From: an uncultured Bacilli bacterium
Lineage (GTDB): Bacteria > Bacillota_I > Bacilli_A > RFN20 > CAG-826
DNA length: 64,000 nt
Assembly: GCA_934700895.1 (NCBI GenBank)
Contig: CAKUXV010000001.1
Span: forward strand, 60,070-124,069
Direction: 5' to 3'
A model generated the notes under the pieces. The model was not told the DNA's origin. It ran no database searches and saw only the letters and a list, made by a program, of their open reading frames with translations. The translations under genes and the position numbers were made by a program. Position 1 is the first letter of the stretch. Each line of letters begins with the position of its first letter. Positions 5,545 through 64,000 of this stretch are shown here, piece by piece.

Positions 5545-5608
5545 GATGAAAATAGGAAGAAACGATTAGAAGAATTCCATGTACAATCAAGCTAACAGAG
5601 GATTTTGC

Positions 5609-7225
5609 ATGCAAGGATATCAGCATTTCGGTGTCATGGTCGACGTTTCCCGCAATGGGGTTTTAAATCACGACGAATTGATTCGTTTTGTGGATTTGAT
5701 CGCCAAGATTGGCTATGACACGTTAGAACTTTATAGCGAAGACATTTATGAAATCGATGGGGAGCCTTATTTTGGATATCTTCGTGGGGCCTATTCCAAG
5801 AAGGAAATCCAAGAAATGGATCGTTATTGCGCTTCCAAGGGAATAGAACTCATTCCTTGTATCCAAACTTTGGCCCATTTCACGAATCCGGCTAAACTGG
5901 GCTGCTTCCAAAAACTGCTTGATATCGACGATATCCTTAATGTGGATAAGCCAGAGGTGTACGAATTCATTGAGCGCTTGATTGCCAATGTCCGATCCTG
6001 TTTCACTTCAAAAAACCTCAATATTGGAATGGATGAGGCCTATAACCTTGGATATGGGAAACATCTCCGGGAATATGGGTACGAAAAGCAAGGCGAAATC
6101 ATCGCCCGTCATTTGGAACGCGTGGCTAAGATTGCCAAAAAATATGATTTTGACTGCCACATGTGGGGCGATATGTTTGTTCGTTTGTCCAATAACGGCC
6201 ATTACTTGGATGAAATCGATATCGAGAATTTCCACGCTCCCAAAGAGGTGGTGAATCGAATTCCTTCTAACGTCAGCCTCGCCTATTGGGATTATGGTCA
6301 CGAAGACCCCCATTTCTATGACCGCATGTTTGAATTTTATGGCGAATTCCACCATCCCGTTTGGTTCGCGGGAGCTGGATATACCTGGCGTGGATTCTGC
6401 CCACAAAACGCCTATTCGCTTAGTCTATTGAAAGCTTCTTTCCAAAGCATGAGAAAAAACCGCGTGGAACATTATCTCCTTACCCTTTGGGGAGATAATG
6501 GAAAAGAATGTTCCCTTTATGAGGCCTTGCCCGTCATCTTTGCTGCTTCCGAGTTTGCCAAAGGGAATGAAGATATTTCAGATATCGCAAGGAAAATGAA
6601 GGGCGTCCTTGGATTATCCTTTGAAGATTTCCTGCTTTTAGATAAGCCGAACTTAGGAACTGTGAAAGGCGAGCCGCTTGGCGGCGCCAATAGCCTCTCC
6701 AAGTGCCTGCTTTATTCCGACCCCTTGATGGGTGTCTATGACTTGGACTTCAAAGAACTGGATCCCATGGATTTTAAGACGATGAAAATAGAAATCGAAG
6801 AAGCGGGAAAACGAAACGAACCCTATCGATACGTATTCGATATGGTTGCTGCGTTGTGCGGAGTTTTGGAACATAAAGCCTATTGGGGAATCAAGGCCCA
6901 TGAAGCTTATTTTGCCCAAGACAAAAAGCAACTAAAGGTCCTTTGCGACGAATGCGATGACATCATAGTTTCTTTAAATGTTTTCCAACGCTCGTTCGAA
7001 AAATTATGGCTAAAGGAAAACAAGGCCTTTGGCTATGAAATCCAATGTGCGCGACTTGGTGGATTAAAAGAACGGATGGCCTATGCAAAACGCCGTTTAA
7101 GCGCTTATCTAAAGGGAGAAATCGATTCGATGGAAGAACTAGAAGCGAAGCAACTTCCTTCTTATCGCCCCGAAGGGCTTCGCGTGAATAATTACCGTTG
7201 GTCGGTTTCTACGAGCGAAATCTAA
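5609..7225 (+). CDS. TIM-barrel glycoside hydrolase, GH20-like (putative beta-N-acetylhexosaminidase or lacto-N-biosidase-like), cytoplasmic
   Basis: FGVMVDVSRNGV resembles the GH20 R-x-DxSRH motif, and NIGMDEAYNLG resembles the GH20 H-x-GGDE catalytic motif. AGAGGA RBS lies 8 nt before the ATG at 5609; the ORF track start at 5579 is also possible. No signal peptide. Confidence 0.5.
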   Translation: MQGYQHFGVMVDVSRNGVLNHDELIRFVDLIAKIGYDTLELYSEDIYEIDGEPYFGYLRGAYSKKEIQEMDRYCASKGIELIPCIQTLAHFTNPAKLGCFQKLLDIDDILNVDKPEVYEFIERLIANVRSCFTSKNLNIGMDEAYNLGYGKHLREYGYEKQGEIIARHLERVAKIAKKYDFDCHMWGDMFVRLSNNGHYLDEIDIENFHAPKEVVNRIPSNVSLAYWDYGHEDPHFYDRMFEFYGEFHHPVWFAGAGYTWRGFCPQNAYSLSLLKASFQSMRKNRVEHYLLTLWGDNGKECSLYEALPVIFAASEFAKGNEDISDIARKMKGVLGLSFEDFLLLDKPNLGTVKGEPLGGANSLSKCLLYSDPLMGVYDLDFKELDPMDFKTMKIEIEEAGKRNEPYRYVFDMVAALCGVLEHKAYWGIKAHEAYFAQDKKQLKVLCDECDDIIVSLNVFQRSFEKLWLKENKAFGYEIQCARLGGLKERMAYAKRRLSAYLKGEIDSMEELEAKQLPSYRPEGLRVNNYRWSVSTSEI

Positions 7226-7237
7226 AAAAGGTGGTTT

Positions 7238-9856
7238 ATGAAGAAATTAGAATTACGTTATGGGCAACCTGCGCCCATGAATATCGAAGGATGGGAAAAA
7301 TATTCCCTTCCGATTGGAAATGGGTATTTCGGTGCAAGTGTGTTCGGCGGGATTGAAGACGAGGAAATCCAATTCACCACGAATGAATATGCGAACGATT
7401 ATCCACATGGGGGTGTTTCCTCCTTTTCGGAGATTCATATCGCCTATCAACCTAAAAATAACATCTCGGACTACATCCGTTCTTTGTCTCTTCGAACCGG
7501 GTGCGCGTCTTCTTCGTTTTTCGATGGAAGCAATCACATCCAAAAGGAATGCTTTTGTTCTTATCCCGATCATTGCTTTGCTTTTTCCATCGAAGCGAAT
7601 CAACCCATCGATTTGAATATCGGCCTCCTCATCTCCTATTTGGGAAAGCGCAGCATTGAAGATGGCGGAAGAGAAGGACGCGTCTATTTTGAAAAAAATG
7701 TTCTTGTGATGCGAGGAACCCATCCTGCCAAAAATCTGATTTACGAAGGACGGCTGGGAGTTATTTCCAATGGAAAAGTGGAACAAAAAGAAATGAGTTT
7801 TTGCATCAAAGGAGCGACCCACGTATCGATTTTCTATGCGGCAGGGACTTCTTATTTGCTTTGTCCAAAGACTTTCTTCAGCCATAAGGCGGAAGGGAAA
7901 GATCCTCATGAAGATGTTACGAAGCGTCTTCAAAATGCGATGGGGATTGGCTATGCCGAGTTAAAAGAACGCCATGTCCAAGATTACGTCTCCTTAATGG
8001 GCCGCGTGGATTTGGATCTTGGAGGAAAAGAAGATGCCCGTTATACGGATGAATTATTAGAAAGCTTCCGCCAAGGCGAATCCATCCCGTATTTAGAAGA
8101 GCTGTATTTCCAATATGGACGCCACCTTTTGGTTTCTTCTTCTCGGAAAGGCAGCTTGCCTGCTTCCTTGCAAGGAGTATGGACGGCCCACGATAAATCG
8201 CCGTGGGGGAGCGGATTCTGGCATAACATCAATATCCAGATGAATTATTGGCCGGCTTTTGTGACGAATCTTGGCAAGACTTTTGATGCCTACGCGGATT
8301 TCTTCTTGGCCTATTTGCCTTATGCTCAAACGAGTGCCTCTAAATGGGTGCAGGAAGAAAATCCCACCTCCTATGAAGAAGGGGAAGGAAAATGCGGTTG
8401 GATCATCGGAACGGGTGCTTTTGCCTATGAAATTGAGGGCATGCGTCATCAAACCCATTCGGGCCCTGGGACCGGAGGAATGACCAGTCGTTTGTTCTAT
8501 GATGCCTACGCCTTTACCTTGGATCAGGATTTTGCAGCCAAATACGTTGAACCTGCGGTCCACGGCATGGCGAAATTCTTTGTCCGCTGCGTCAAAAAAT
8601 ATGACGATAAATATCTTTGCTCGTATTCTGCTTCCCCCGAACAGCTTCTGGGCGGACACTGGGTATTAAGCGATCCTGCCCAGCAATATTATCACACGGT
8701 TGGCTGCGCGTTTGATGAGCAAATGATGCAGGATAATGCTTTAAACGACCTACGTATCGCCGCAGTTTTAGGAAAAGAAGACGACACGACGAAATTAGAA
8801 CGTCTTCAAGCCAACCATTATGATCCTGTCCAAATCGGTTACAGCGGACAAATCAAGGAATACCAAGAAGAACATTTCTATGGGGAAATCGGCGAATATC
8901 ATCACCGTCATCTTTCTCAACTCGTTGGCTTGATGCCGGGAAGCTTAATCACCCATCAAACCCCTGCTTGGTTAGACGCGGCAAAACGCACCTTGGAACT
9001 TCGCGGGGATTTCTCTACTGGTTGGGCTTTGGCGCACCGCCTTTGCTGCTGGGCTCGTGTTGGGGATGGTGACCATTGCTATCGTTTGCTGAGAATGCTC
9101 CTAGAAAAGAAGACCCACCCGAACCTTTGGGACGTCCATCCGCCTTTCCAAATCGATGGAAATTTCGGAGCAACAGCAGGCATCGCCGAAATGCTCCTTC
9201 AAAGTCATGAAGGATATATTTCTTTGCTGCCTGCCTTGCCTTCTGCTTGGAAAAAGGTGTCTTTCCGCGGACTAAAAGCCCGTGGCAATTTTGAAATTTC
9301 TTGTTGTTATGAAAACGGCGTGATTCAAGAAGTTCGTCTTCTCTCCCTGAAAGGGCAAGAGGCACGGATTCGTTACGAGGGCATTACCCACGCGATTCAG
9401 GTGGAAAGCGAAGAAGGGGTGTACGCCAACGTCGAAGGGGCGGAAGTCTCTTTCCCAACGATTCCAGGGCATACCTATGTGATAAAAGGGTTTGTTCCTT
9501 TAGAAGTCTTTGCCCCCGTTGAATGTTTTCAAGCTTCTTATGCGATGGACGGCGTGCATCTATCTTGGCAAGGAAGCGGGCCTTTCGCTTTGTATCGCGC
9601 GGAAGGGGACTCCCCCCGTTACCAATTGCTTGCCGTGTTAGAACGTTCTTCTTTCCTCGACAAGGACTTTTCGATGAAGCGAAAGGGGAGACTAACTTAC
9701 AAAGTGATGCCCGCTCACCGGGCAAGCCAAGAGAAAAATGGGGCTTTGGCCTTCCTTTCTCCCGCTAGTGAGTTAGAAGAAGATCGTTACCAACTAAAAA
9801 TCGCGGTGAATAACCAATTCGCTGAGAAGATTGGCTGGAGCGAAAAAGACGATTAA
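7238..9856 (+). CDS. Glycoside hydrolase family 95 (alpha-L-fucosidase, AfcA-like), cytoplasmic
   Basis: 872 aa. The N-terminus LELRYGQPAPMNIEGWEKYSLPIGNGYFGASVFGGIEDEEIQFTTNEY matches the GH95 signature (W..ALPIGNG.LGAMVFGG...E.IQLNE). AAGGTGG RBS precedes the start. Confidence 0.85.
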   Translation: MKKLELRYGQPAPMNIEGWEKYSLPIGNGYFGASVFGGIEDEEIQFTTNEYANDYPHGGVSSFSEIHIAYQPKNNISDYIRSLSLRTGCASSSFFDGSNHIQKECFCSYPDHCFAFSIEANQPIDLNIGLLISYLGKRSIEDGGREGRVYFEKNVLVMRGTHPAKNLIYEGRLGVISNGKVEQKEMSFCIKGATHVSIFYAAGTSYLLCPKTFFSHKAEGKDPHEDVTKRLQNAMGIGYAELKERHVQDYVSLMGRVDLDLGGKEDARYTDELLESFRQGESIPYLEELYFQYGRHLLVSSSRKGSLPASLQGVWTAHDKSPWGSGFWHNINIQMNYWPAFVTNLGKTFDAYADFFLAYLPYAQTSASKWVQEENPTSYEEGEGKCGWIIGTGAFAYEIEGMRHQTHSGPGTGGMTSRLFYDAYAFTLDQDFAAKYVEPAVHGMAKFFVRCVKKYDDKYLCSYSASPEQLLGGHWVLSDPAQQYYHTVGCAFDEQMMQDNALNDLRIAAVLGKEDDTTKLERLQANHYDPVQIGYSGQIKEYQEEHFYGEIGEYHHRHLSQLVGLMPGSLITHQTPAWLDAAKRTLELRGDFSTGWALAHRLCCWARVGDGDHCYRLLRMLLEKKTHPNLWDVHPPFQIDGNFGATAGIAEMLLQSHEGYISLLPALPSAWKKVSFRGLKARGNFEISCCYENGVIQEVRLLSLKGQEARIRYEGITHAIQVESEEGVYANVEGAEVSFPTIPGHTYVIKGFVPLEVFAPVECFQASYAMDGVHLSWQGSGPFALYRAEGDSPRYQLLAVLERSSFLDKDFSMKRKGRLTYKVMPAHRASQEKNGALAFLSPASELEEDRYQLKIAVNNQFAEKIGWSEKDD

Positions 9857-23766: not shown

Positions 23767-25440
23767 TTAGTCGAAGAGGTCCGGGAACGTCTTTTCAAAA
23801 TAGGAATAGACGTCATCGTCGTGATAGGAGATCGACATTTTTTCCACGAAGTACTGACGAGCAGCCTTTTTGTAGGAATCGCCATCGCCAATGAGGTCCG
23901 CGATGTCCCAAATGATTTGGTTCATCGTTTCACCGGAGGTGCGCTTTTCATAGCTGGTGTCGCTGTTCTCTTTGCTTTGAAGCTTCGGAGACTTGACGGC
24001 TTCGTCCACACGGACGATGTACCAAGTTTTACCGGAGTCATCATACATCGCGTACGGATAGGCTTCGCCGGTTTGAATCGTTTCGGGGCGGAGGTAATAT
24101 TCGCCCTGAACGCGCCAAGTGAAGGTGTCTTTGATCGTTTCGGTGATATCTTTGTCCGCGTAAGCCGGGTTATCGACTTCGTTGGCCACCTGGGTCTTGA
24201 ACAAACGGGTCTTCATGGAAGAGGGGAGATCGCTCAAGCCGGAAGAGGTGTACCATCCTTCAGTGACTTTGCTGGAAGCAACGATATCGCGGGTCTTCAT
24301 TTCAAGACCAGTGACTTTGGTATAAGCTCCGGAATTGGTGAAGTCTGTGGTCGATCCGGTTTCCCAGCGAGAATCGCTGAGATCCTTGAAATCGAGGACG
24401 AGTTGGCCATAGGTCGTTTCGCGATAGGTGGCTTCGGTCGTGTAGAGCAAGTCGCCATCCGCGTTGGTGACGTTATAGGCAGCAACGGCGGTGAAGCCAG
24501 CTTCATTGTAGATGCTATTTAAGACCGTCGCGTAAGAGGTTTGCTCTTCGGCGGTGAAATAGCCGGAATAAAGACGATTCAAGAAGTGGAGGTCTTTGTA
24601 AACGCCGGCGAATTCGCCAAGGTCGCTATCCTTCTTTTCCAAGACGTTCTTGCAATAGGCGCGAACGAGGGAACGGGTGGAGGATTCATATTTGTCGAGG
24701 TTCGGCAAGGCGACGTATTGGACCTTACGGGCATAGGAACGTCCGAGGGCGCCATAGTTGTTGTCGATGAGGTATTGCTCGACTAAAGCCTTGCGATAAG
24801 CGTTCGGCAACAAGGAACGTTCAATATAATCCTTATAATAAGAGAAGAATTGATCGTTTTGGACGTGGAAGTAACCCATGACGTCCTTATAGGTCTTGGA
24901 GCCGTCGATGGCGCCGTCATTTTTGAAGGTGACTTCGCTATCGAGCTTATAAAGTTCGGCTTGTTGGGCTTTGACAAAGAGTTCTTCGTGGAAGCGTTGG
25001 TTCTTTTGATAAGAACTATTGCTGACCACGGACCAGAAGGACTTCATGATGGAAGTCACGATGGAATTGTGGAAATCCAAGGCTTTGGTCGTCGCGACTT
25101 CGTCACTGATACCTTCGCGGAAGAAGGCGGTCGGTTTGACGCCGTCGTTTAATTTCCAAGTTCCGGTGGCATCGCAGGTATAATCTGCAAAGAAATCGCC
25201 GAAATAGGATTTGGCATAGAGATAAAGAACGTTGTTGAGGATCTTTTCGCTATTGGTATCCCCGCTGACGACGACTTTGTCATAAATCTCAAGGAGTTTA
25301 TTTCCAAAGACGTCGGTATCTTTGAGGATGGTCTCGTTTTGGTCGGCCTTTCCGAGGCTCATTTCGACATCGCCGCAAGAAGCGAGGCCGAGGGTCATCG
25401 CAGCAAGGAAGGCTGCGGAGAAGATTTTGATTTTCTTCAT
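23767..25440 (-). CDS. Large lipoprotein of unknown function (557 aa)
   Basis: Signal peptide plus lipobox MKKIKIFSAAFLAAMTLGLASC. GGAGAAACGAAC RBS. No recognised domain. Acidic, Tyr/Lys-rich. Confidence 0.7.
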   Translation of the reverse strand: MKKIKIFSAAFLAAMTLGLASCGDVEMSLGKADQNETILKDTDVFGNKLLEIYDKVVVSGDTNSEKILNNVLYLYAKSYFGDFFADYTCDATGTWKLNDGVKPTAFFREGISDEVATTKALDFHNSIVTSIMKSFWSVVSNSSYQKNQRFHEELFVKAQQAELYKLDSEVTFKNDGAIDGSKTYKDVMGYFHVQNDQFFSYYKDYIERSLLPNAYRKALVEQYLIDNNYGALGRSYARKVQYVALPNLDKYESSTRSLVRAYCKNVLEKKDSDLGEFAGVYKDLHFLNRLYSGYFTAEEQTSYATVLNSIYNEAGFTAVAAYNVTNADGDLLYTTEATYRETTYGQLVLDFKDLSDSRWETGSTTDFTNSGAYTKVTGLEMKTRDIVASSKVTEGWYTSSGLSDLPSSMKTRLFKTQVANEVDNPAYADKDITETIKDTFTWRVQGEYYLRPETIQTGEAYPYAMYDDSGKTWYIVRVDEAVKSPKLQSKENSDTSYEKRTSGETMNQIIWDIADLIGDGDSYKKAARQYFVEKMSISYHDDDVYSYFEKTFPDLFD

Positions 25441-25452
25441 GTTCGTTTCTCC

Positions 25453-27570
25453 TTACTTCTTATAGCAGGCGCCCGGTTTTCCGGCGTGGGTGCCGCTGGT
25501 GACGATGCCCCAGATGTTCTTTCCATCACGGGCGTCGGCGGTGTTGTAGGTCAAGGCCGCGACTTCGGAGATAAGTTTTTGAGAACCGTCTTCGCGGGTT
25601 TCGCGGGAAGCATCTTCGCGAAGGAGGAATTCCGCGTATTTGGCCCAGGCTTCGTCGATGGACTTTTCTGCGTCTTCCGCGTTCTTCTTTCTTTGCTGCT
25701 TCGAATAGTTATAAACGGAATCCATGATCGTTTTGACCGTGGCGTTCTCCACATTGAATTTCGCATTGGTTTCTTTGACCAAATATTGGACTTCATAGGT
25801 GTCGAGGTCGCTAGAATAGGCGGCTTTGACTTTGCTCTTTAAGTCTTCGATGTTGGTCTTGTAGTTTTCCTTGGTGGTATCAAGGCCCATGGTGATGAGG
25901 GTCGTCTTGTCCATCTTGGTATCGCCAACCGTGTATTGCGGATAGCTCTTAGATTCAGCCGGGTTTTCGAAGGTGTAGTATTCGGAAAGCGAGGTGATGT
26001 CTTTGCTGGAACTCGTTTCGGTGGTTTCGACGTATTTGCCGTTGTCGAATCCAGCGTAAGCGATGAGCGGGCTGCGTTCCACGACGATGAAGTGGATGCC
26101 TTTGGTTCCGGAATCGCCTCGGACGGCTAGGATGATTTGTCCTTTTTCGTTAGTGAGGACGTTTTCGGCGTTGCCACTGGCGTCTTTCACGTCAAGGATG
26201 TCTTTGGTGTTATTTTGGAAACCAGGGAGTTTCGCGTAATCGTTATCCAACGTGCCTTTCCAAGCAGCGTCTTCCGCGGCCTTTTTGTAATAGCCTTCCA
26301 CTTCGGCGTATTTGGTGGCGGCAGCTTCTTCGCTGGCTTGGGTGAATCCCGCTTCGACGACATCGTTATAGGCGATGCGGTTCGGGGTGATCACGGCAAT
26401 GCGGTGCGAGTTGAAGTATTTGTTCCAAATGACGTTGCGCGGCATATAGGCCGAATCATTGTCATTGACTTGATATTGCTGCGACGGGAAGTTCTTGTTG
26501 ACTTGGTCGTTGGCCAAAGCAACGGCGGCACCGAAGGGAATCGTGCCGATTTCGCCTAAAACGCCGTTGGAGGCAGTGGCTTCGGAAAGAAGGGTTTCCT
26601 CACCTTTTTCGTTGCGGAATTTGGCGTCTTCGGAATACATGATGGCCGATTTGTTGGCATCTGCATCTTTATGCGTGCTCTTGTTGAAGAAGAGGTCGTA
26701 GGCATAAACGCCGTATTGGAATCCTTGAACGAAGGAAGTAGAAGTATCCATGATGCCGAGGTTCCCGTATTTTTCAGCGGATCCGGTATCTTTGGAATAG
26801 GTTTTGGCCAATTCGCCAAAGGTCATGCGTCCGTCGGCGACGGATTTCTTGCCGTTATCGCTATCGACGGTGCTGGCGCCCGCCATCATCAAGATGACAT
26901 CGCCAAAGGTTTTGGCTTCGGTTTCGCTGACCGAGGTGCTCGTGGCATCGGATTCGCTCGCGCTAGAAGCTTCGAGCAAAATGTGCGAAACGTTGTACGG
27001 CATGCGGGTCTTTAAATAACCTTCCGACCCTTTGCCAAAGTTTTCGTCTTCGGGGAAGAAGCTGTTGCCGTTGGAATCCTTGCCATCGCGCATCTTCACC
27101 AAGTTGGCGTCGCTTTGATAGTCGGTGTTGAATTTGTCGGATTCGACTTCGTAGAGTTTCTTTTGATAAAGCTCTTCGACATTGTCAACATCTTCGCCGT
27201 CCAACAAAGCTTCCAACTCAGTCGCATAAGACGTGCCATTGTTTTTGGCATTGGTCTCCGCTTGGTTCTTGATACCGTCAACTTTGGTTTGAGCCGAGGA
27301 CTTCAAAAGACTGAGGTCGCCGGCGCGGCTCGGATCCTGGTAGTACTTACGGATTAGAATTTCTTTGATTTTGTCAAAATCGCTGCTTGCGGTGCTGCTG
27401 CTGGCTTGATAGTCCTCAAACAATTCTTTGGTTGTATAGTTCGTGACTTTGCCGTTCGCATCGGTGAAGCTAATCGCGACACCCTCTTTGTAGCTGGTCT
27501 CATTGCAACCCACCAAAGTGGCAAGGGCCGTGAGGCTAACTAAACATGTGAGGAGTTTGGTTTTCTTCAT
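25453..27570 (-). CDS. Large lipoprotein of unknown function (about 706 aa), possibly with a divergent parvulin-like segment
   Basis: Start at MKKTKLLTCLVSLTALATLVGC (lipobox) with a GGAGGA RBS. It is 12 nt upstream of the next lipoprotein gene, which suggests an operon. Weak PpiC-like motifs (NVSHILL ... GIHFIVVERS) are present but are separated by a very long insert. Confidence 0.65.
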   Translation of the reverse strand: MKKTKLLTCLVSLTALATLVGCNETSYKEGVAISFTDANGKVTNYTTKELFEDYQASSSTASSDFDKIKEILIRKYYQDPSRAGDLSLLKSSAQTKVDGIKNQAETNAKNNGTSYATELEALLDGEDVDNVEELYQKKLYEVESDKFNTDYQSDANLVKMRDGKDSNGNSFFPEDENFGKGSEGYLKTRMPYNVSHILLEASSASESDATSTSVSETEAKTFGDVILMMAGASTVDSDNGKKSVADGRMTFGELAKTYSKDTGSAEKYGNLGIMDTSTSFVQGFQYGVYAYDLFFNKSTHKDADANKSAIMYSEDAKFRNEKGEETLLSEATASNGVLGEIGTIPFGAAVALANDQVNKNFPSQQYQVNDNDSAYMPRNVIWNKYFNSHRIAVITPNRIAYNDVVEAGFTQASEEAAATKYAEVEGYYKKAAEDAAWKGTLDNDYAKLPGFQNNTKDILDVKDASGNAENVLTNEKGQIILAVRGDSGTKGIHFIVVERSPLIAYAGFDNGKYVETTETSSSKDITSLSEYYTFENPAESKSYPQYTVGDTKMDKTTLITMGLDTTKENYKTNIEDLKSKVKAAYSSDLDTYEVQYLVKETNAKFNVENATVKTIMDSVYNYSKQQRKKNAEDAEKSIDEAWAKYAEFLLREDASRETREDGSQKLISEVAALTYNTADARDGKNIWGIVTSGTHAGKPGACYKK

Positions 27571-27613
27571 GTGGAATCGTTCCTCCTTCGTCTGAACGTA
27601 GCCTTTGAAGTTT

Positions 27614-27629
27614 ATACTCTTAAGAGTAT
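27614..27629. promoter_or_regulatory. Perfect 16-bp palindrome ATACTCTTAAGAGTAT in the promoter region of the lipoprotein operon
   Basis: Exact inverted repeat about 45 nt upstream of the lipoprotein ATG; a candidate operator. Confidence 0.4.
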
Positions 27630-28113
27630 CAAGGCAATAAAAATAATTCGGGATGATGAGCGATTGTTCATTAAGGGATGAAAAGAAGAAATCGAACGAT
27701 TTTCCTTTCGAGTTCAACCAGCCAAATTTTGCTGGATTGTGCTAAAAAACACATCCTTACTCAAAGTTTAATTTTAATGTATAAGAAAACGACAAATGTA
27801 AACGGAATGAAAACGACAAATTCTACCTTATATTCTTAATTAGTTAAGAAAGATTTGAAAAATTACGCGGATTATTATTTAAAAATGCTGAACATGAATG
27901 TACAGCAAAAAATAATTATATTTTGATGATTTAAAAATTATATTTTGACTTTGGTTTCGCTAGGGAAGGCGGATTTGATTTGCTGTCTCCAGAGCACGGA
28001 TAAATCTGTTTCTTGAGCGAAAGCGAACATTATTTGCGTTTGACGTTATCGTTTCGTTTGATAGGCTATGCCTAGATGCATAAAATAGACAGGCTCTTTC
28101 GGAGGCGCTTTTT

Positions 28114-58477: not shown

Positions 58478-59209
58478 ATGAATCCCACGCAAGCATTACC
58501 CAAATATTTGGAAATTAAGACGAATTTGATCACGCAAATCAAGACGGGAGACTTTTGCAAAGCAGAGATGCTTCCGACAGAAAAAGAACTTTGTTCCCGG
58601 TATGGAGTTTCGCGTATCACGATTCGCAAAACTCTGGATGAACTCAAAAAAGAAGGGTATGTTTCCTCCCGTCCTGGGTTTGGAACGAAGATCAATCATC
58701 ATAAGGAAGATTTATCGGCTTTTACCTTGGTTGAAAGCTTCACTTCTGAGATGAAGGAGTACGGTTCGAAGATCAAAACCATCAAAGCGTCCCTTACGAT
58801 TGTTTACGCCGATGAAGAGCGTGCAAGGGAGATGCGTTGCGATATCGGCGATAAACTTTACAATTTAAAGCGTGTACGCGGGGATGAGAAAGGCCCTATC
58901 GTCTATAGCGATACTTGGCTGCGTTTGCCCTTTGATTTGCCAAGCACCCAAGATTTCCTATACGGATCCCTTTACCAATGCCTCATTGAAAAAGGGCTTT
59001 ATTTTTCCCGATTTGAAGAATGCTTATCCGCCCAGAGGAGCACCGCCGCCATCGAAGAAATGCTCCAACAAGAAGAAAATGGCATTGTGTTAAAGCGTGT
59101 TCGTCGCGGTTATGATGCTAATAAGCGTATGATCGAGCTCACGGATAATTTCTATAATCCCGAACGTTATTCTTACGAAGTTGAAGTCGATTCCATTCAT
59201 AAAATTTAA
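58478..59209 (+). CDS. GntR-family transcriptional regulator, HutC subfamily (HTH plus UTRA effector domain)
   Basis: N-terminal GntR HTH (LPTEKELCSRYGVSRITIRKTLDELKKEGYV) and a C-terminal UTRA-like domain. Start chosen at MNPTQ. Confidence 0.8.
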   Translation: MNPTQALPKYLEIKTNLITQIKTGDFCKAEMLPTEKELCSRYGVSRITIRKTLDELKKEGYVSSRPGFGTKINHHKEDLSAFTLVESFTSEMKEYGSKIKTIKASLTIVYADEERAREMRCDIGDKLYNLKRVRGDEKGPIVYSDTWLRLPFDLPSTQDFLYGSLYQCLIEKGLYFSRFEECLSAQRSTAAIEEMLQQEENGIVLKRVRRGYDANKRMIELTDNFYNPERYSYEVEVDSIHKI

Positions 59210-59221
59210 ATGTATTAGAAA

Positions 59222-59265
59222 GGTACTATTTCTTGTTGACACATTAGTAGTACCAAGTTTATGAT
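59222..59265 (+). promoter_or_regulatory. Sigma-A-type promoter (TTGACA-18-TATGAT) for the sugar ABC operon, overlapped by the inverted repeat GGTACTA...TAGTACC
   Basis: TTGACA at 59236-59241 and TATGAT at 59260-59265. The 7-bp inverted repeat arms flank the -35 element and are a likely repressor site. Confidence 0.45.
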
Positions 59266-59289: not shown

Positions 59290-60396
59290 ATGGCATATTT
59301 GGAATTCGAACACGTCGGCAAGACCTACCCCAATGGTTTCGAGGCCGTCAAAGATTTAAACCTTTCTGTGGAGAAAAACGAGTTCGTCGTTTTCGTCGGT
59401 CCTTCGGGATGCGGCAAAACCACGTCCTTGCGTATGCTCGCGGGTTTGGAAGACATCACCGCAGGAACCATCTCCATTAACGGAACGGTCGTCAACGATT
59501 TGGAACCTAAGGATCGCAATATCGCGATGGTATTCCAGAATTACGCTCTTTATCCCCATATGACTGTTTATGACAACATGGTCTATGGATTGAAATTCCA
59601 GCACGTTAAGAAAGAAGAACAAAAAGCGCGTGTTGAAGAAGCCATGAAGATTCTTGGCTTCGATGAATCCCTTTTAAAACGGAAACCCGCTCAGCTTTCT
59701 GGCGGACAAAAGCAGCGTGTCGCTTTAGGCCGTGCCATCGTTCGTCGCCCCGATGTTTTCTTAATGGATGAACCTTTGTCCAACCTTGATGCCAAACTTC
59801 GCATCACGATGCGCGAAGAAATTATTCGCATCCACCGCGAAGCCACCGCAACCACCATTTACGTTACCCACGACCAGACCGAAGCCATGACGATGGCCGA
59901 CAAAATCGTCGTCATGAACCTTGGCGTTGTGCAGCAAATCGCTTCCCCAGAAGAACTTTACGATTATCCGGCCAACGTCTTTGTCTCGACCTTTATCGGC
60001 GCCCCGGCCATGAATGTGATTCCGTCCCATTTGGAAAACGGCGTTTTGACCTTCCAAAGCGGCAACCGCGTCGAATTGCCCAAAGAACACTTGGAATTCT
60101 ACAAAGACTACGAAGGGAAAGACGTCCTTTTCGGCATCCGCCCCGAGGATTTCTATTTGGAAGAAGGCGACATCAAATCCAAGATGGCTCATCCCTTCCG
60201 CGGCAAAATCGACATCGTCGAATTGTTAGGATTTGAAACTATCCACTATATTCAAGACCAAGATGTCCGCATCGTGGCCAAAGTCCCCCATAAGAGCCCC
60301 TACCGCCAAGGCGATGAAGTGACTTTCTTCATCGACATGAGCAAATACGCTTTATTCGATTGCGAATCGACCCTTCGCATTCCGCGGGAGCATTGA
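59290..60396 (+). CDS. msmK: Sugar ABC transporter ATP-binding protein (MsmK/MalK/UgpC type)
   Basis: Walker A GPSGCGKTT, signature LSGGQKQRVALGRA, Walker B FLMDEPLSNLD, and a C-terminal TOBE regulatory domain. 368 aa. Confidence 0.9.
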   Translation: MAYLEFEHVGKTYPNGFEAVKDLNLSVEKNEFVVFVGPSGCGKTTSLRMLAGLEDITAGTISINGTVVNDLEPKDRNIAMVFQNYALYPHMTVYDNMVYGLKFQHVKKEEQKARVEEAMKILGFDESLLKRKPAQLSGGQKQRVALGRAIVRRPDVFLMDEPLSNLDAKLRITMREEIIRIHREATATTIYVTHDQTEAMTMADKIVVMNLGVVQQIASPEELYDYPANVFVSTFIGAPAMNVIPSHLENGVLTFQSGNRVELPKEHLEFYKDYEGKDVLFGIRPEDFYLEEGDIKSKMAHPFRGKIDIVELLGFETIHYIQDQDVRIVAKVPHKSPYRQGDEVTFFIDMSKYALFDCESTLRIPREH

Positions 60397-60398
60397 GA

Positions 60399-62195
60399 AT
60401 GATTCCCTTTTCCTACTTGGAAAAAGAAGGGCTCCTTTCTTTTGAAAAGCCCGCGGTCCTTTCTTCCATGGAAGTGGAAGGAACGGTCGCTTTCCTTTCG
60501 TTTTCCCTAGACGGCGAACGTTTCTTCGAAGAGGAAATCCGCCAGGAAGGAACGCGTTTGGATTTGAAAAATCTCGTCTGCTCTTTTCTTCGAATCGAGG
60601 GCGCTAAACCCATTTCTTTGGAAGAAGGAGAGGGCTATATTGGAGTTCCGGAGGAAGCATTCACCTCGCTTTTCCAGACCCAAAAGGGCTGGATGGGCGG
60701 AGACGGCTTATTCACCTTCAACTTATTCGATAACCGCAACGACGAACCGGATCGCGTTCGGACCTTATGCGTTTTCGGGGACACGTTCGTGAACACCCGT
60801 TCCTCTCATGACGTTCGCTTGGACCCGTGGCTTATGCCCCACAATTCCTATGCGATCATCGAAGGAGCAGAACCCAAGAAAGAAGCCACGGCCTTCCACG
60901 TTAAGCAAGATCAAAAAGGGCATTTCGGCTCTTACTTAGAACCTCATAATCCTCAAAGCTTTTCTGGAACCATGGCCGATAATTTAGTGGCTTATGGAGA
61001 AAAGAAGGGGGACGTGTATCTAAGTTCCTATGATCCCGAGAAACCGATTGTATTGAAATTTTGCTTTGGCAAAGTTTATCCCCTCAAGCAAATCCGTGTC
61101 GTGAATTATTCTAGGCCAGATCCCTTTAGCGTGGGTTATGCTCGTCGCGGCGTGAAGAGAATGAACGTTTTGGCCTATGCCCATGGCAAACTCCAAAAAG
61201 AAAAAGAAGTCACCCTCCGTATGGCGGAAGGAGCGATGGACGAACAGCTCATCTCCCTTGTCGCGGAAGCCGACGCCGTGGAATTCCATATCCCTAACGA
61301 GAATGGAATCGGCAATTATGGCGGAATTGGCGGTAACGAGGGCTTATTTGGCTTAAGCAAAGTCTATTTTGATACGGAACATAGCACCCTTATCGACATC
61401 CAGGCCGATGCAAACTTCGAACTTGCTTGCTCGGATAAAAACGGTTGGTTCTGGTTGCAGGATGGCATCATCCAAAATGGATATTTCTATTCTTTGCCTT
61501 TAGTTGGCGTGAGCGACCTCGCTCAACCGGAAGGATTCCAGTTCCGGATCGAAGGGGTGTCGATGCTTCGCCTCCCCATCGAAAATGGCTATCCCAATTT
61601 TGATAAAGCGGAACAAAAGGCGACCAACCTCCATCAACGCTATGGAACGATTGAAGCCTTTTATGGCGCGGGGATCCTCGATTCTGTCCAAGAAGATGGA
61701 TACGTCTATGTTTACGGCTATTTAACCGACCAAAATCATTTGGAAAACGGAAAAGAGATGGTGGTTGCCAGGACCAAGGATTTCTCCAACATCAACGAAT
61801 GGGAATTCTTTGATGGGACCTCCTTCCAAAAAGACATCACCAAGTCTGCCCCCTTGCTCCATCACGTCTCTTGCGAACTCTCGGTTTTCAAGAATTTAGA
61901 CCAATATGTCGCGATCTTCACTTACGACGTTCAGTCCCCCTATGTCGCTTATAGCTTGAGCCCCACCCCCTATGGTCCCTTTGGACCCATTCGCATCGCT
62001 TATGCGGACACGTCCAAATATTGCCCGCATGAATATCACTACAACGCGAAGGGCCACAAGCATTTGTCTCATCCAGGCGGGATTCTAGCCTCCTATAACG
62101 TCAATACGTCGGACTTAGGAGAGAATCTGGAATTCGCCAGCTGCTACGGACCTCGATTTGTCCGTCTTCAATACGTTCGCGGAGGTAAGAAATGA
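60399..62195 (+). CDS. Uncharacterised cytoplasmic protein (598 aa) translationally coupled between the ABC ATPase and permease genes; putative novel carbohydrate-active enzyme
   Basis: ATG at 60399 lies 2 nt after the msmK stop, and its own stop overlaps the permease start (ATGATGG). No signal peptide or TM segment. Motifs include KGWMGGDGLFTFNL, GNYGGIGGNEG and tandem Tyr/Gly-rich segments. No confident family assignment. Confidence 0.5.
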   Translation: MIPFSYLEKEGLLSFEKPAVLSSMEVEGTVAFLSFSLDGERFFEEEIRQEGTRLDLKNLVCSFLRIEGAKPISLEEGEGYIGVPEEAFTSLFQTQKGWMGGDGLFTFNLFDNRNDEPDRVRTLCVFGDTFVNTRSSHDVRLDPWLMPHNSYAIIEGAEPKKEATAFHVKQDQKGHFGSYLEPHNPQSFSGTMADNLVAYGEKKGDVYLSSYDPEKPIVLKFCFGKVYPLKQIRVVNYSRPDPFSVGYARRGVKRMNVLAYAHGKLQKEKEVTLRMAEGAMDEQLISLVAEADAVEFHIPNENGIGNYGGIGGNEGLFGLSKVYFDTEHSTLIDIQADANFELACSDKNGWFWLQDGIIQNGYFYSLPLVGVSDLAQPEGFQFRIEGVSMLRLPIENGYPNFDKAEQKATNLHQRYGTIEAFYGAGILDSVQEDGYVYVYGYLTDQNHLENGKEMVVARTKDFSNINEWEFFDGTSFQKDITKSAPLLHHVSCELSVFKNLDQYVAIFTYDVQSPYVAYSLSPTPYGPFGPIRIAYADTSKYCPHEYHYNAKGHKHLSHPGGILASYNVNTSDLGENLEFASCYGPRFVRLQYVRGGKK

Positions 62196-63082
62196 TGGAT
62201 CACGCATCCAAACCGAAAAAAGCGACTTTCAAACCGAAGAAGCCGCATTCGAAAAAAGCCCATTCCATTCGAGAAAAGGTCATCGCCTACATTTTCCTTG
62301 TCCTTTGCTCCATCTTCTTTGTTGTCCCCTTACTTTGGATGCTTTTAACAGCCTTAAAGTCCACGGAAGATTTGCAAACCGGCGTTTTCTTCCCGACGAA
62401 ACTTTATTGGGATAACTTCAAAACCGCGGTGAAATCCGTCCCCTTTGGCCAATATACGTTCAATTCCCTTTATTACGCTTTGTTCGCCACAATCGGTACG
62501 GTTTTCTCCTGCACCATCACTTCCTATGCCTTTGCTAAGCTCAATTGGCCGGGTAGAGACAAACTGTTCATGGTTCTTATCGCGACCATGGTCATCCCCT
62601 CTCAAATCATCCAGATTCCTTTGTATATCATCTATTTCAAACTCGGCTGGATCGATACGTATAACCCCTTGATCATTCCTCTTTGGTTTGGAGTTGGTCA
62701 GGCCGCGAACATCTTCTTGCTCCGCCAATTCTTCATGGGCATTCCCAATTCGTTAAAGGAATCCGCTCGTTTGGATGGGGCGAATGAATTCCAGATTTTC
62801 TGGACCATCATGTTGCCGCTTGTCCGTCAAATGCTTGTCGTTGTAGCCATCATGACGTTCCTGAACTGCTGGAATGATTTCTACAACCCCTTGCTTTATA
62901 TCAACGATTCGAACCTCTTCCCCCTTGCCTACGCGATTCGCACCTTCGCCACGCAATATTCCAACCAAAACAACCTGATTATGGCGGCCTCCCTCATCAT
63001 GACGATTCCGTCCCTCATTCTCTTCTTCCTCGCGCAGAAGCAGATTGTTGGCTCGGTAGCCCATACGGGGACCAAGGGATAG
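62192..63082 (+). CDS. Carbohydrate ABC transporter permease (MalG/UgpE-like)
   Basis: 296 aa with six TM helices and the EAA loop (LKESARLDGANEFQIFWTIMLP). Confidence 0.85.
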   Translation: MMDHASKPKKATFKPKKPHSKKAHSIREKVIAYIFLVLCSIFFVVPLLWMLLTALKSTEDLQTGVFFPTKLYWDNFKTAVKSVPFGQYTFNSLYYALFATIGTVFSCTITSYAFAKLNWPGRDKLFMVLIATMVIPSQIIQIPLYIIYFKLGWIDTYNPLIIPLWFGVGQAANIFLLRQFFMGIPNSLKESARLDGANEFQIFWTIMLPLVRQMLVVVAIMTFLNCWNDFYNPLLYINDSNLFPLAYAIRTFATQYSNQNNLIMAASLIMTIPSLILFFLAQKQIVGSVAHTGTKG

Positions 63083-63095
63083 GAGGGCAAACAAG

Positions 63096-64000
63096 ATGAA
63101 AAAGAAATCAACAGCATTCCTCGCTTTATTAGGAGGAATCGTCCTCGCAAGTTGCAAGCCACCCCTATGGTTCATTCCCAAAGATGACGCGACCGACTAT
63201 GGAGAAAGACAACAACTCATTTTCTATCATCAGTGGCAGCGCGGCGCGACAGGCTATGCCGAAATCAATGGACTCATCAAGGAATTTAACGCTTCCGACG
63301 TCGCGAAGAAATATAACGTCGCGATTAAAGGCAACGGCGTAAACTTCTGGGACTATTGGGACAAGGTCAATCTCGCCATTTCCGGCGGATCGGCCCCGGA
63401 CATCTATCTTCATACGGTTTCTGACGTTCCGCTTCGGGCCCGTTATAACCTCGACTTGACCGCGATGGAAGAAGAAGACACCGCCAAGGGCATTGAAACC
63501 CTGAAGGCCGAAGACATGTTCTTCCCCACCCAAATCAGCGATATCGCCAAATACGACGAAAACAATCATATGAAGGCCTGGCCGTTCTCGGCGACGGTTC
63601 GCGTTGTTTATTACAACAAAGACCTCTTCCGAGCTGCCGGCATCACGGATACTCCCAAGACTTGGGCGGAGATGGAAACGATTTCCCAAAAACTCACCCA
63701 ATACAAAGAAGAAGGGAATCCCTCCTCCGGTTATAAGGTCGTGGGATATGACCCCTTCTCCGGAGAAGGGCAATACGTCCATCAATGGGGATGGCTCTCC
63801 GGCCATTCGTTTTGGGGCAAAGATCCTTCTAACGGCCGCCCCGTCCCCCAATTCAACGACGCCACCTACATCAAAAACCTGGAATCGCTTTATTACGATT
63901 CCTATTGCCGCAAAGATGCGCAAGCCCGTCAAAATCTCGAAGACTTTATGGCGGATGTCGGCAAAACCGGCGCTGACCCCTTCGTCTCGGGAAAACTCGG
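63096..64000 (+). CDS. Extracellular sugar-binding lipoprotein of the ABC transporter (partial; runs past the window end)
   Basis: AGGAGGG RBS and ATG at 63096. Signal peptide plus lipobox MKKKSTAFLALLGGIVLASC. Family-1 solute-binding-protein features (WAEMETISQKL..., VVYYNKDLF). It is absent from the ORF track because it is truncated by the window. Confidence 0.75.
   Translation, partial: MKKKSTAFLALLGGIVLASCKPPLWFIPKDDATDYGERQQLIFYHQWQRGATGYAEINGLIKEFNASDVAKKYNVAIKGNGVNFWDYWDKVNLAISGGSAPDIYLHTVSDVPLRARYNLDLTAMEEEDTAKGIETLKAEDMFFPTQISDIAKYDENNHMKAWPFSATVRVVYYNKDLFRAAGITDTPKTWAEMETISQKLTQYKEEGNPSSGYKVVGYDPFSGEGQYVHQWGWLSGHSFWGKDPSNGRPVPQFNDATYIKNLESLYYDSYCRKDAQARQNLEDFMADVGKTGADPFVSGKL

Follow-up and report, generated by a model that had tools for sequence, protein, structure and literature searches.

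What is the function of a 598-aa protein whose gene lies between the ATPase gene and a permease gene of a sugar importer? The gene is found near the end of a 64,000-nt stretch of DNA from an uncultured Bacilli bacterium (contig CAKUXV010000001.1, positions 60,070 to 124,069; hereafter the window). A sequence-only reading of the window had proposed a cytoplasmic enzyme that is the first to act on the imported sugar inside the cell, and its superfamily, catalytic residues and operon show that this is very probably correct. The protein is a divergent member of the DUF4185/DUF5005 five-bladed-propeller superfamily, and with high probability it is a retaining glycosidase resembling those of glycoside hydrolase family 183 (GH183) that acts on an imported oligosaccharide. 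The more specific proposal, a retaining propeller glycosidase of imported and probably mannose-containing oligosaccharides, we consider moderately probable.

The open reading frame (ORF) is a genuine conserved gene. Its 598 codons begin with the ATG at 60399, 2 nt past the TGA of the ATPase gene (60394-60396) and with GGAG 11 nt on its 5' side, and its own TGA (62193-62195) overlaps the ATG of the permease gene at 62192 (ATGA), which is preceded by GGAGG. The 2-nt gap and the overlap bear out the suggested co-translation with the transporter genes. A longer alternative with a TTG start at 60360 is present in the mechanical ORF list, but 60399 is the likely start because the orthologs, among them P0001 with 92% identity, begin at the MIPFSY position. 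Neither a signal peptide nor a transmembrane helix was found (the maximal Kyte-Doolittle mean over 19 residues is 1.25), which agrees with the cytoplasmic location given by the sequence-only reading. In a database clustered at 90%, 61 homologs were found at E<=1e-3. A family search of a 50%-clustered library of 1.84 billion sequences gave 3553 representatives at E<=1e-3 and 559 at E<=1e-30. The DUF4185/DUF5005 relatives of the protein are thus a real but modest-sized group. An origin as a frameshifted second permease, the case that would have made the ORF an artefact, was rejected, since the protein gives a confident soluble propeller model and the actual second permease is encoded downstream on the contig.

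Superfamily, catalytic residues and domains

DUF4185 corresponds to CAZy family GH183, the retaining endo-alpha-D-arabinofuranases that were found in 2023 and degrade mycobacterial arabinogalactan and lipoarabinomannan (PMC10115798, PMC10509167). We compared the protein with EndoMA1 and EndoMA2 of Microbacterium arabinogalactanolyticum, DgGH4185a and DgGH4185b of Dysgonomonas gadei, and Rv3707c and AraH2 of M. tuberculosis. The sequence-only reading had seen no motif that could be placed in a known family. This did not hold, because the Pfam search that it proposed gave a match to DUF4185 (E=1.8e-8, 34.5 bits, under the gathering score of 39.5 and covering residues 429-533 only), and the precomputed Pfam annotation gives DUF5005 (PF16396) and DUF4185 for the protein and likewise for nearly all of the 61 homologs. 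PF16396 is in that annotation, whereas our local hmmscan found no DUF5005 match to the protein at E<=1. All 43 relatives in the family alignment, A1, match DUF4185 (E<0.01), 18 of them match DUF5005 (E<0.01; best 2e-10) and 20 match F5_F8_type_C. The DUF4185 gathering score is exceeded by the relatives P0030 (56.0 bits), P0037 (46.4) and P0035 (41.6), and by a second paralog of the same operon, paralog b (42.4). Single-sequence searches were nearly blind: phmmer against PDB sequences gave nothing beyond 4hbs at E=0.35, and the search of NCBIfam gave nothing meaningful. A family profile was therefore needed, and the A1 profile matched 4hbs at 1e-14 and EndoMA1 (8hhv) at 3e-9.

Structure prediction, also proposed by the sequence-only reading, gave the same placement. 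The AlphaFold2 (AF2) model on A1 is confident (predicted local distance difference test score 94.1, predicted template-modelling score 0.92), and Foldseek agrees with the superfamily. The model has a five-bladed beta-propeller catalytic domain like that of EndoMA1 and is structurally similar to 4HBS, which is its nearest structure ahead of EndoMA1. 4HBS is BACOVA_04882 of Bacteroides ovatus, a DUF5005 protein described by structural genomics as a 'putative hydrolase' of unknown function. It shares the motifs GW-x-GGDG, F-x-D-(T/S)-F and Y-x-x-N-x-HP-x-LS with our protein but differs in being a 416-residue chain from Bacteroidota with a continuous propeller, in which the alignments show neither a nested discoidin domain nor the N-terminal domain. 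With GH183 the protein has in common the profile-level homology, FGDTF, the upstream G-x-D-G Asp and the SEx-SV Glu. The 4HBS branch, itself uncharacterised, is nearer to the protein than characterised GH183 is, and within GH183 sensu stricto the protein would be a borderline member. For GH43, GH62, GH117, GH159, GH32, GH68 and GH130, no sequence match was significant at the family level. The position of the acid/base residue in EndoMA1 also differs from that in GH43 (PMC10509167). A GH32-like enzyme, which the sequence-only reading had suspected from the WMGGDG block, was rejected. The WMNDPNG, RDP and EC motifs of GH32 are absent; the fold and the role implied by that hint were essentially right. 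Weak matches of residues 231-306 to carboxysome carbonic anhydrase were far under the cut-offs, lie within a nested discoidin-like domain and were dismissed as chance.

In EndoMA1, the nucleophile D33, the acid/base D51 and the third carboxylate E243 are all essential for a retaining mechanism (PMC10509167), and D170 and D188 of DgGH4185b behave like the D33/D51 pair (PMC10115798). This Asp/Asp/Glu triad is matched in the 598-aa protein by D102, D128 and E493. D128, in FGDTF, aligns with EndoMA1 D51 (VLTAFGD51TFG, from V45), and E493 (SCE493LSV) aligns with E243 (SEMSV). GW-x-GGD102G aligns with GWNGGDG of 4HBS, and FNDSF of 4HBS aligns with FGD128TF; in 4HBS the Asp of GGDG stands 18 residues before the Asp of FND, the same spacing as from D33 to D51. 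D102, D128 and E493 are invariant in A1 (n=43) and in a second alignment, A2. Other invariant residues are W98, R140, W352, Q354, D355, N549, K551 and H553, and the C-terminal part of the propeller holds the invariant motifs WxWLQD355G and YNAK-x-H553-x-LS. This invariance of the catalytic carboxylates and other residues argues for an active glycosidase with the GH183 mechanism, in which D102 would be the nucleophile, D128 the general acid/base and E493 the third essential carboxylate.

The propeller is interrupted by a beta-sandwich, probably of the discoidin/F5-F8 type C (CBM32-like) kind, and preceded by a small all-beta domain (Table 1). At about residues 204-320 of orthologs with the same architecture, F5_F8_type_C (cut-off 28.2 bits) was exceeded by P0030 (34.0 bits) and P0035 (29.6) and narrowly missed by P0037 (25.5), and Foldseek placed the CBM32 structure 4uap at rank 50; segment 201-331 of the 598-aa protein alone gave no F5_F8_type_C match. 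Relatives from Paenibacillus carry their discoidin domains at the N terminus and have an unbroken propeller, indicating that the nesting is a clade-specific domain insertion. Relatives from Paenibacillaceae (about 480-560 aa) lack the domain of residues 1-84 and align from about residue 85. Both extra domains would probably shape or cap the substrate site. The Gly-rich GNYGGIGGNEG loop, which the sequence-only reading had pointed out, belongs to the nested domain and lies outside the active site.

Operon and conserved locus

The importer genes of the window are summarized in Table 1. The ATPase, MalG-like permease, lipoprotein solute-binding protein (SBP) and GntR regulator named by the sequence-only reading were all confirmed with Pfam. 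Its remark that only one permease is present turned out to reflect the end of the window, since a second permease gene follows the SBP gene on the same contig; in its make-up the transporter is ordinary. Looking further downstream, as had been suggested, revealed this permease and also a BadF/BcrAD-type kinase gene. The operon ends with paralog b, which is 29% identical to the 598-aa protein (paralog a), and with a third, shorter DUF5005-type paralog (c). On a related contig (L081:8036-8668) the paralog c gene directly follows that of paralog b with overlapping stop and start; 211 N-terminal residues are covered by that contig, and the N-terminal domain is absent. The operon of the gut clade thus encodes three cytoplasmic paralogs, a, b and c.

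Between the GntR and ATPase genes is a gap of 80 nt with the best sigma-70-like match of the region (11/12 positions) and an inverted repeat, GGTACTA-N19-TAGTACC, around the -35 box. In an ortholog locus of 55% identity (L005) the aligned arms are GTAATA and TATTAC, so the palindrome is kept despite changes on both sides; no other locus showed the exact pattern. The palindrome at 59222-59254 is consistent with a candidate GntR/HutC operator.

Table 1. Features of the 598-aa gene and its operon. Positions refer to the window unless a locus is named; L001 is the locus of this contig (365 kb), identified by an exact protein match and read past the window end.
Feature	Position	Strand	Basis
GntR/HutC-type regulator, likely operon repressor	58478..59209	+	Pfam GntR 2.1e-15, UTRA 2.2e-20
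Inverted repeat GGTACTA / TAGTACC around -35 box, candidate GntR operator	59222-59228, 59248-59254	+	palindrome kept in L005
Promoter-like TTGACA-18-TATGAT	59236-59265	+	sigma-70-like match
MsmK/MalK-type ATP-binding cassette (ABC) ATPase	59290..60396	+	Pfam ABC_tran 1.3e-35, OB_MalK, TOBE_2
598-aa predicted hydrolase, paralog a, DUF4185/DUF5005 (GH183-related)	60399..62195	+	Pfam, profile, AF2, Foldseek
N-terminal small all-beta domain, aa 1-84	60399..60650	+	AF2 secondary structure
Propeller part 1, aa 85-200, with GW-x-GGD102G and FGD128TF	60651..60998	+	alignments with EndoMA1, 4HBS
D102 codon, predicted nucleophile	60702-60704	+	alignment
D128 codon, predicted acid/base	60780-60782	+	alignment
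Nested beta-sandwich, probably discoidin/F5-F8 type C (CBM32-like), aa ~201-330	60999..61388	+	ortholog Pfam, Foldseek
Propeller remainder, aa 331-598	61389..62192	+	invariant motifs, alignments
E493 codon, predicted third essential carboxylate	61875-61877	+	alignment with EndoMA1 E243
ABC permease 1, MalG-like	62192..63082	+	Pfam BPD_transp_1 4.1e-15
Lipoprotein SBP, gene cut by window end (470 aa in full, L001)	63096..64000	+	Pfam SBP_bac_8/SBP_bac_1; lipobox LASC
Second BPD_transp_1 permease, 318 aa	L001, after SBP gene, beyond window		Pfam
341-aa protein with lipobox and C-terminal transmembrane anchor	L001:15135-16160		
199-aa protein, clusters with DUF624 membrane proteins of related loci	L001, after 341-aa gene		
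573-aa phosphomannose isomerase-like protein	L001:16812-18533, ~6.4 kb past window end		
BadF/BcrAD-type kinase	L001, after 573-aa gene		
GDSL/SGNH esterase with N-terminal transmembrane helix	L001:19401-20168		
Second DUF5005/DUF4185 gene (paralog b)	L001, after GDSL gene		
Paralog c equivalents	L081:8036-8668, L002:21031-21776		motifs GWSGADG...FSDT...YYWLQDG

A scan of one genome per species gave 74 loci, and ORFs were called and clustered in 80 loci, many of them on incomplete contigs. The closest relative (92% identity) comes from a gut metagenome-assembled genome (MAG) named "uncultured Bacilli bacterium". Most members of the family fall into three groups of hosts: Mycoplasmatota MAGs of sediment, soda-lake and digester origin (Acholeplasmatales, Izemoplasmatales, Haloplasmataceae and others); small Bacilli of the gut, for example CAG:288; and Paenibacillaceae (Cohnella, Paenibacillus). 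Permease genes are found in 74-76 of the 80 loci, SBP genes in 70-72, the phosphomannose isomerase (PMI)-like protein of about 570 aa in 50-54 (50 at full length), DUF624 in 51, the GDSL esterase with an N-terminal transmembrane helix in about 47 and GntR in 43-45. A BadF kinase occurs in 36 loci, a ROK kinase in eight, and a GH38-like protein in 13, with canonical GH38 in further loci; an ABC ATPase gene inside the cluster is seen in 13, all in the gut-Bacilli clade. In the Mollicutes-like loci the genes typically run in the order BadF (divergent), GntR, secreted paralog, cytoplasmic paralog, permease, SBP, permease, lipoprotein, DUF624, the 570-aa protein, GDSL and sometimes a PMI of about 310 aa. 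Fifty of the loci encode a lipoprotein or secreted paralog (about 690-990 aa, with discoidin domains) plus at least one cytoplasmic paralog, and there are three to four divergent paralogs per locus with a mutual identity of about 29%. The locus is therefore a Gram-positive equivalent of a polysaccharide utilization locus (PUL), with cutting outside, ABC import and finishing inside the cell.

Accessory genes of the locus were also noted. Lipoproteins with a C-terminal transmembrane anchor lie between the second permease and DUF624; the 275-aa type (e.g., L025:10501-11328) occurs in 43 loci and the 341-aa type in 12, and neither has a Pfam or PDB match. They may assist the importer by binding glycans at the cell surface. 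The GDSL esterase is membrane-anchored, its catalytic domain possibly facing outward, and it merged with DUF5005 proteins in all-against-all clustering, which suggests GDSL-DUF5005 fusions in some loci. Just upstream of one related cluster, a 309-aa protein (L002:6016-6945) has a weak Pfam match to GH172_2nd; its gene adjoins a glycerate kinase fragment and a second GDSL gene, and it is the sole GH172-type hint in the 80 loci.

The comparison with GH183 loci shows both likeness and difference. Like them, these loci form a PUL-like Gram-positive set with secreted paralogs, an ABC importer, an isomerase and a kinase. Unlike GH183 enzymes, which are secreted or directed to the cell wall, the 598-aa protein is cytoplasmic and carries the nested discoidin/CBM32-like domain and the extra N-terminal beta domain. 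Neither GH172, GH116, FGGY kinase and FucI-type isomerase genes nor Leloir, PfkB and pentose genes are recurrent across the 80 loci; instead of GH172 and GH116 there are PMI-type isomerases, BadF/ROK kinases and GH38. This makes a substrate other than D-arabinan likely.

Proposed function and rival explanations

We propose the following mechanism. The hydrolase would be co-expressed and translationally coupled with a GntR-regulated CUT1-type ABC importer, and the imported oligosaccharide would be hydrolysed in the cytoplasm by paralog a together with paralogs b and c, whose genes close the operon. In most related genomes the lipoprotein or secreted paralog would first cut the polymer outside the cell. 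No secreted paralog was seen in the gut-Bacilli clade, including the cluster of this organism, as far as these clusters were read. Together with the three cytoplasmic paralogs, this fits oligosaccharide scavenging, which this organism probably practises. The monosaccharide released would most likely be D-mannose, which the BadF-type kinase would phosphorylate and the class-I PMI-like protein would convert to fructose-6-phosphate; the membrane-anchored GDSL/SGNH esterase may remove acyl (acetyl) groups. We infer hydrolase activity, the retaining mechanism and the regulation of the operon; mannoside specificity and deacetylation are suggested more weakly. Nothing points to the phosphorylase considered by the sequence-only reading, and the protein's nearest relatives are hydrolases that use an Asp as nucleophile.

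That the substrate is a mannoside we regard as evenly balanced. The protein of about 570 aa matches class-I PMI structures (1qwr, 1.3e-14; 1zx5, 4.5e-8) with invariant LSLQVHP and GTIHC, which we take to be the metal-ligand motifs of class-I PMI. This PMI-like domain spans residues ~226-560 and follows an invariant-rich N-terminal domain of about 220 aa; searches of Pfam and NCBIfam gave no match to the protein. A canonical class-I PMI of about 310 aa is additionally present in 24 of the 80 loci, and since many loci carry both, the ~570-aa protein may do something other than plain mannose-6-phosphate isomerisation. The nearest NCBIfam model of the BadF/ROK-type kinase is N-acetylglucosamine kinase, suggesting a hexose or hexosamine 6-kinase type. 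At least 15 loci encode GH38-type alpha-mannosidases. In an Acholeplasma MAG a GH5+CBM27 gene, the typical architecture of a beta-mannanase, lies directly upstream of the GntR-DUF5005 cluster (L047:3351-5678), and this is the only locus with a classical mannanase architecture beside the family. Most Acholeplasmatales and Izemoplasmatales loci encode no other glycosidase, yet they have PMI and PMI-like genes, so in such Mollicutes-type loci the sugar that the isomerase uses must come from the action of the paralogs themselves.

Among solved structures, the SBP is best matched by 4r9f 'MBP1' (E=7e-13), presumably the manno-oligosaccharide-binding CpMnBP1 of Caldanaerobius. Mannan loci of Firmicutes, such as the gmu operon of B. 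subtilis, the mannan locus of Roseburia intestinalis and the CpMnBP1 system of Caldanaerobius, combine an extracellular depolymerase, a CUT1 ABC importer with a lipoprotein SBP, intracellular glycosidases, SGNH acetyl esterases, a sugar kinase and PMI. The loci studied here have the same overall logic. They differ in their enzymes: mannan loci use GH26, GH5, GH113, GH130, GH1 and GH2, whereas the only recurrent glycosidase candidates here are the DUF4185/DUF5005 paralogs with or without GH38. CpMnBP1 is a binder of manno-oligosaccharides for which co-crystal structures exist (PMC4792470). Growth of Peloplasma aerotolerans on D-mannose with yeast extract has been reported, polysaccharides not having been tried, and is suggestive only (PMC11122141). 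The most economical reading would be a mannose-containing, alpha- or beta-linked and possibly O-acylated glycan.

Several points weigh against the proposal as a whole. Identity to the characterised GH183 enzymes is 10-14%, and the protein scores under the Pfam cut-off for DUF4185. The spacing from D102 to D128 is 26 residues compared with 18 in GH183 and 4HBS, the loop being 8 residues longer, and the equivalence of D102 with EndoMA1 D33 is deduced from the motif, spacing logic and the 4HBS alignment. The candidate operator is only a 7-nt repeat and could be chance. The case for mannose is contextual: the sugar of the PMI-like and BadF proteins could be a different one, GH38 is found in a minority of loci only, and GH5-CBM27 (beta-mannan) and GH38 (alpha-mannosides) point to different mannans. 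The D-arabinan locus of Microbacterium follows the same general plan. The searchable literature gives no measured activity for any clade member or for 4HBS and is silent on the clade.

A bona fide GH183-type alpha-D-arabinofuranosidase would mean that the locus imports fragments of D-arabinan or arabinomannan, from walls of the Mycobacteriales type or from other D-arabinofuranose glycans. The cytoplasmic paralogs would then do the exo-work of GH172 and GH116, GH38 and PMI would take the mannan or mannose-cap part of lipoarabinomannan, and acyl or succinyl groups would be left to the GDSL esterase. This reading gains from the facts that the only characterised relatives are retaining endo-alpha-D-arabinofuranases, that all three catalytic carboxylates are conserved, and that the Microbacterium locus has the same plan of secreted GH183, ABC importer, intracellular exo-enzymes, isomerase and kinase; lipoarabinomannan also contains mannose, and the weak GH172_2nd-like gene lies near the L002 cluster. 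We nevertheless consider it improbable. GH172 and GH116 are not among the recurrent neighbours, and in place of an FGGY-type pentulose kinase and a FucI-type isomerase there are a BadF/ROK kinase and class-I PMI-like isomerases. The low identity to GH183 and 4HBS as the nearest structure argue against it too, as do the hosts, which are wall-less Bacilli from gut, sediments and digesters and Paenibacillaceae with no evident link to Mycobacteriales. A glycosidase of the same superfamily with another specificity (beta-D-galactofuranose, alpha-D-fructofuranose or a non-mannose residue of a heteroglycan) is unlikely as well, but deserves more weight than the arabinan reading; mannose would then be freed by other enzymes or be one of several products. 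The fold and the catalytic residues are silent on the -1 sugar, and the divergence of the three to four paralogs per locus suggests several linkages. CBM32-type modules usually bind galactose, N-acetylgalactosamine (GalNAc) or N-acetyllactosamine, and GH84 or GH95 stands beside the cluster in single loci. These points are countered by the loci with PMI genes and no other glycosidase, and by the lack of recurrent Leloir, fructokinase (PfkB) or pentose genes.

A metal-dependent carbohydrate deacetylase of the type of the Flavonifractor plautii GalNAc deacetylase, which also pairs a propeller with a discoidin-type module, or a non-catalytic sugar binder, is very improbable. The deacetylase structure 6n1b ranked 14th, far under 4HBS and EndoMA1, and gave no sequence-profile match even at E<=10, so no relationship to it was found in sequence or in close structure. 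The three invariant GH183 carboxylates would be needless for a deacetylase or a binder, and the locus already has a dedicated GDSL esterase.

Significance and other observations in the window

No paper in the searchable literature treats this clade, DUF5005 or 4HBS functionally. An undescribed function, as the sequence-only reading had it, is plausible for the substrate specificity; the superfamily itself is known. All known GH183 members cut mycobacterial D-arabinan, while this sizeable sister group keeps the catalytic machinery in a different metabolic context. A new specificity of the clade, as retaining endo/exo-mannoside hydrolases or hydrolases of other non-arabinan glycans, is a serious possibility that we put slightly below even. 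On that reading, and with the same reservation, the cytoplasmic enzymes of about 600 aa and the secreted lipoprotein paralogs would be the sole depolymerase set of an unrecognised polysaccharide-utilisation system in wall-less Bacilli and Paenibacillaceae. If so, the clade would merit a GH183 subfamily or a CAZy family of its own, the DUF5005/4HBS branch would have its first function, and the known chemistry of the propeller scaffold would be wider. It would also explain how small-genome, wall-less Bacilli of gut and sediment, with almost no recognised CAZymes, feed on glycans, a capacity that is invisible to standard CAZyme annotation. One carrier of the locus, Peloplasma aerotolerans M4Ah, has been described as a culture (PMC11122141), and the locus is also present in several Cohnella strain assemblies. 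Since it is compact, conserved and present in assemblies named for strains, the hypothesis is directly testable.

Other genes of the window were also observed. Two adjacent ORFs of 557 aa (23767-25440, -) and 754 aa (25453-27717, -) match nothing in Pfam at 1e-5 and nothing meaningful among PDB sequences; the 754-aa product shows only faint PpiC/PrsA-like and SBP-like stretches. The GH95, GH20C-like and GH3 genes, which had been regarded as relevant neighbours, lie 7-55 kb off and are not conserved neighbours of the family, and a functional link to them was therefore rejected. At 5579-9856 (+), about 50 kb from the ORF, a gene for a GH20C-like hexosaminidase (548 aa) is directly followed by one for a GH95 fucosidase (872 aa), and the two look like a pair for trimming host or plant glycans.

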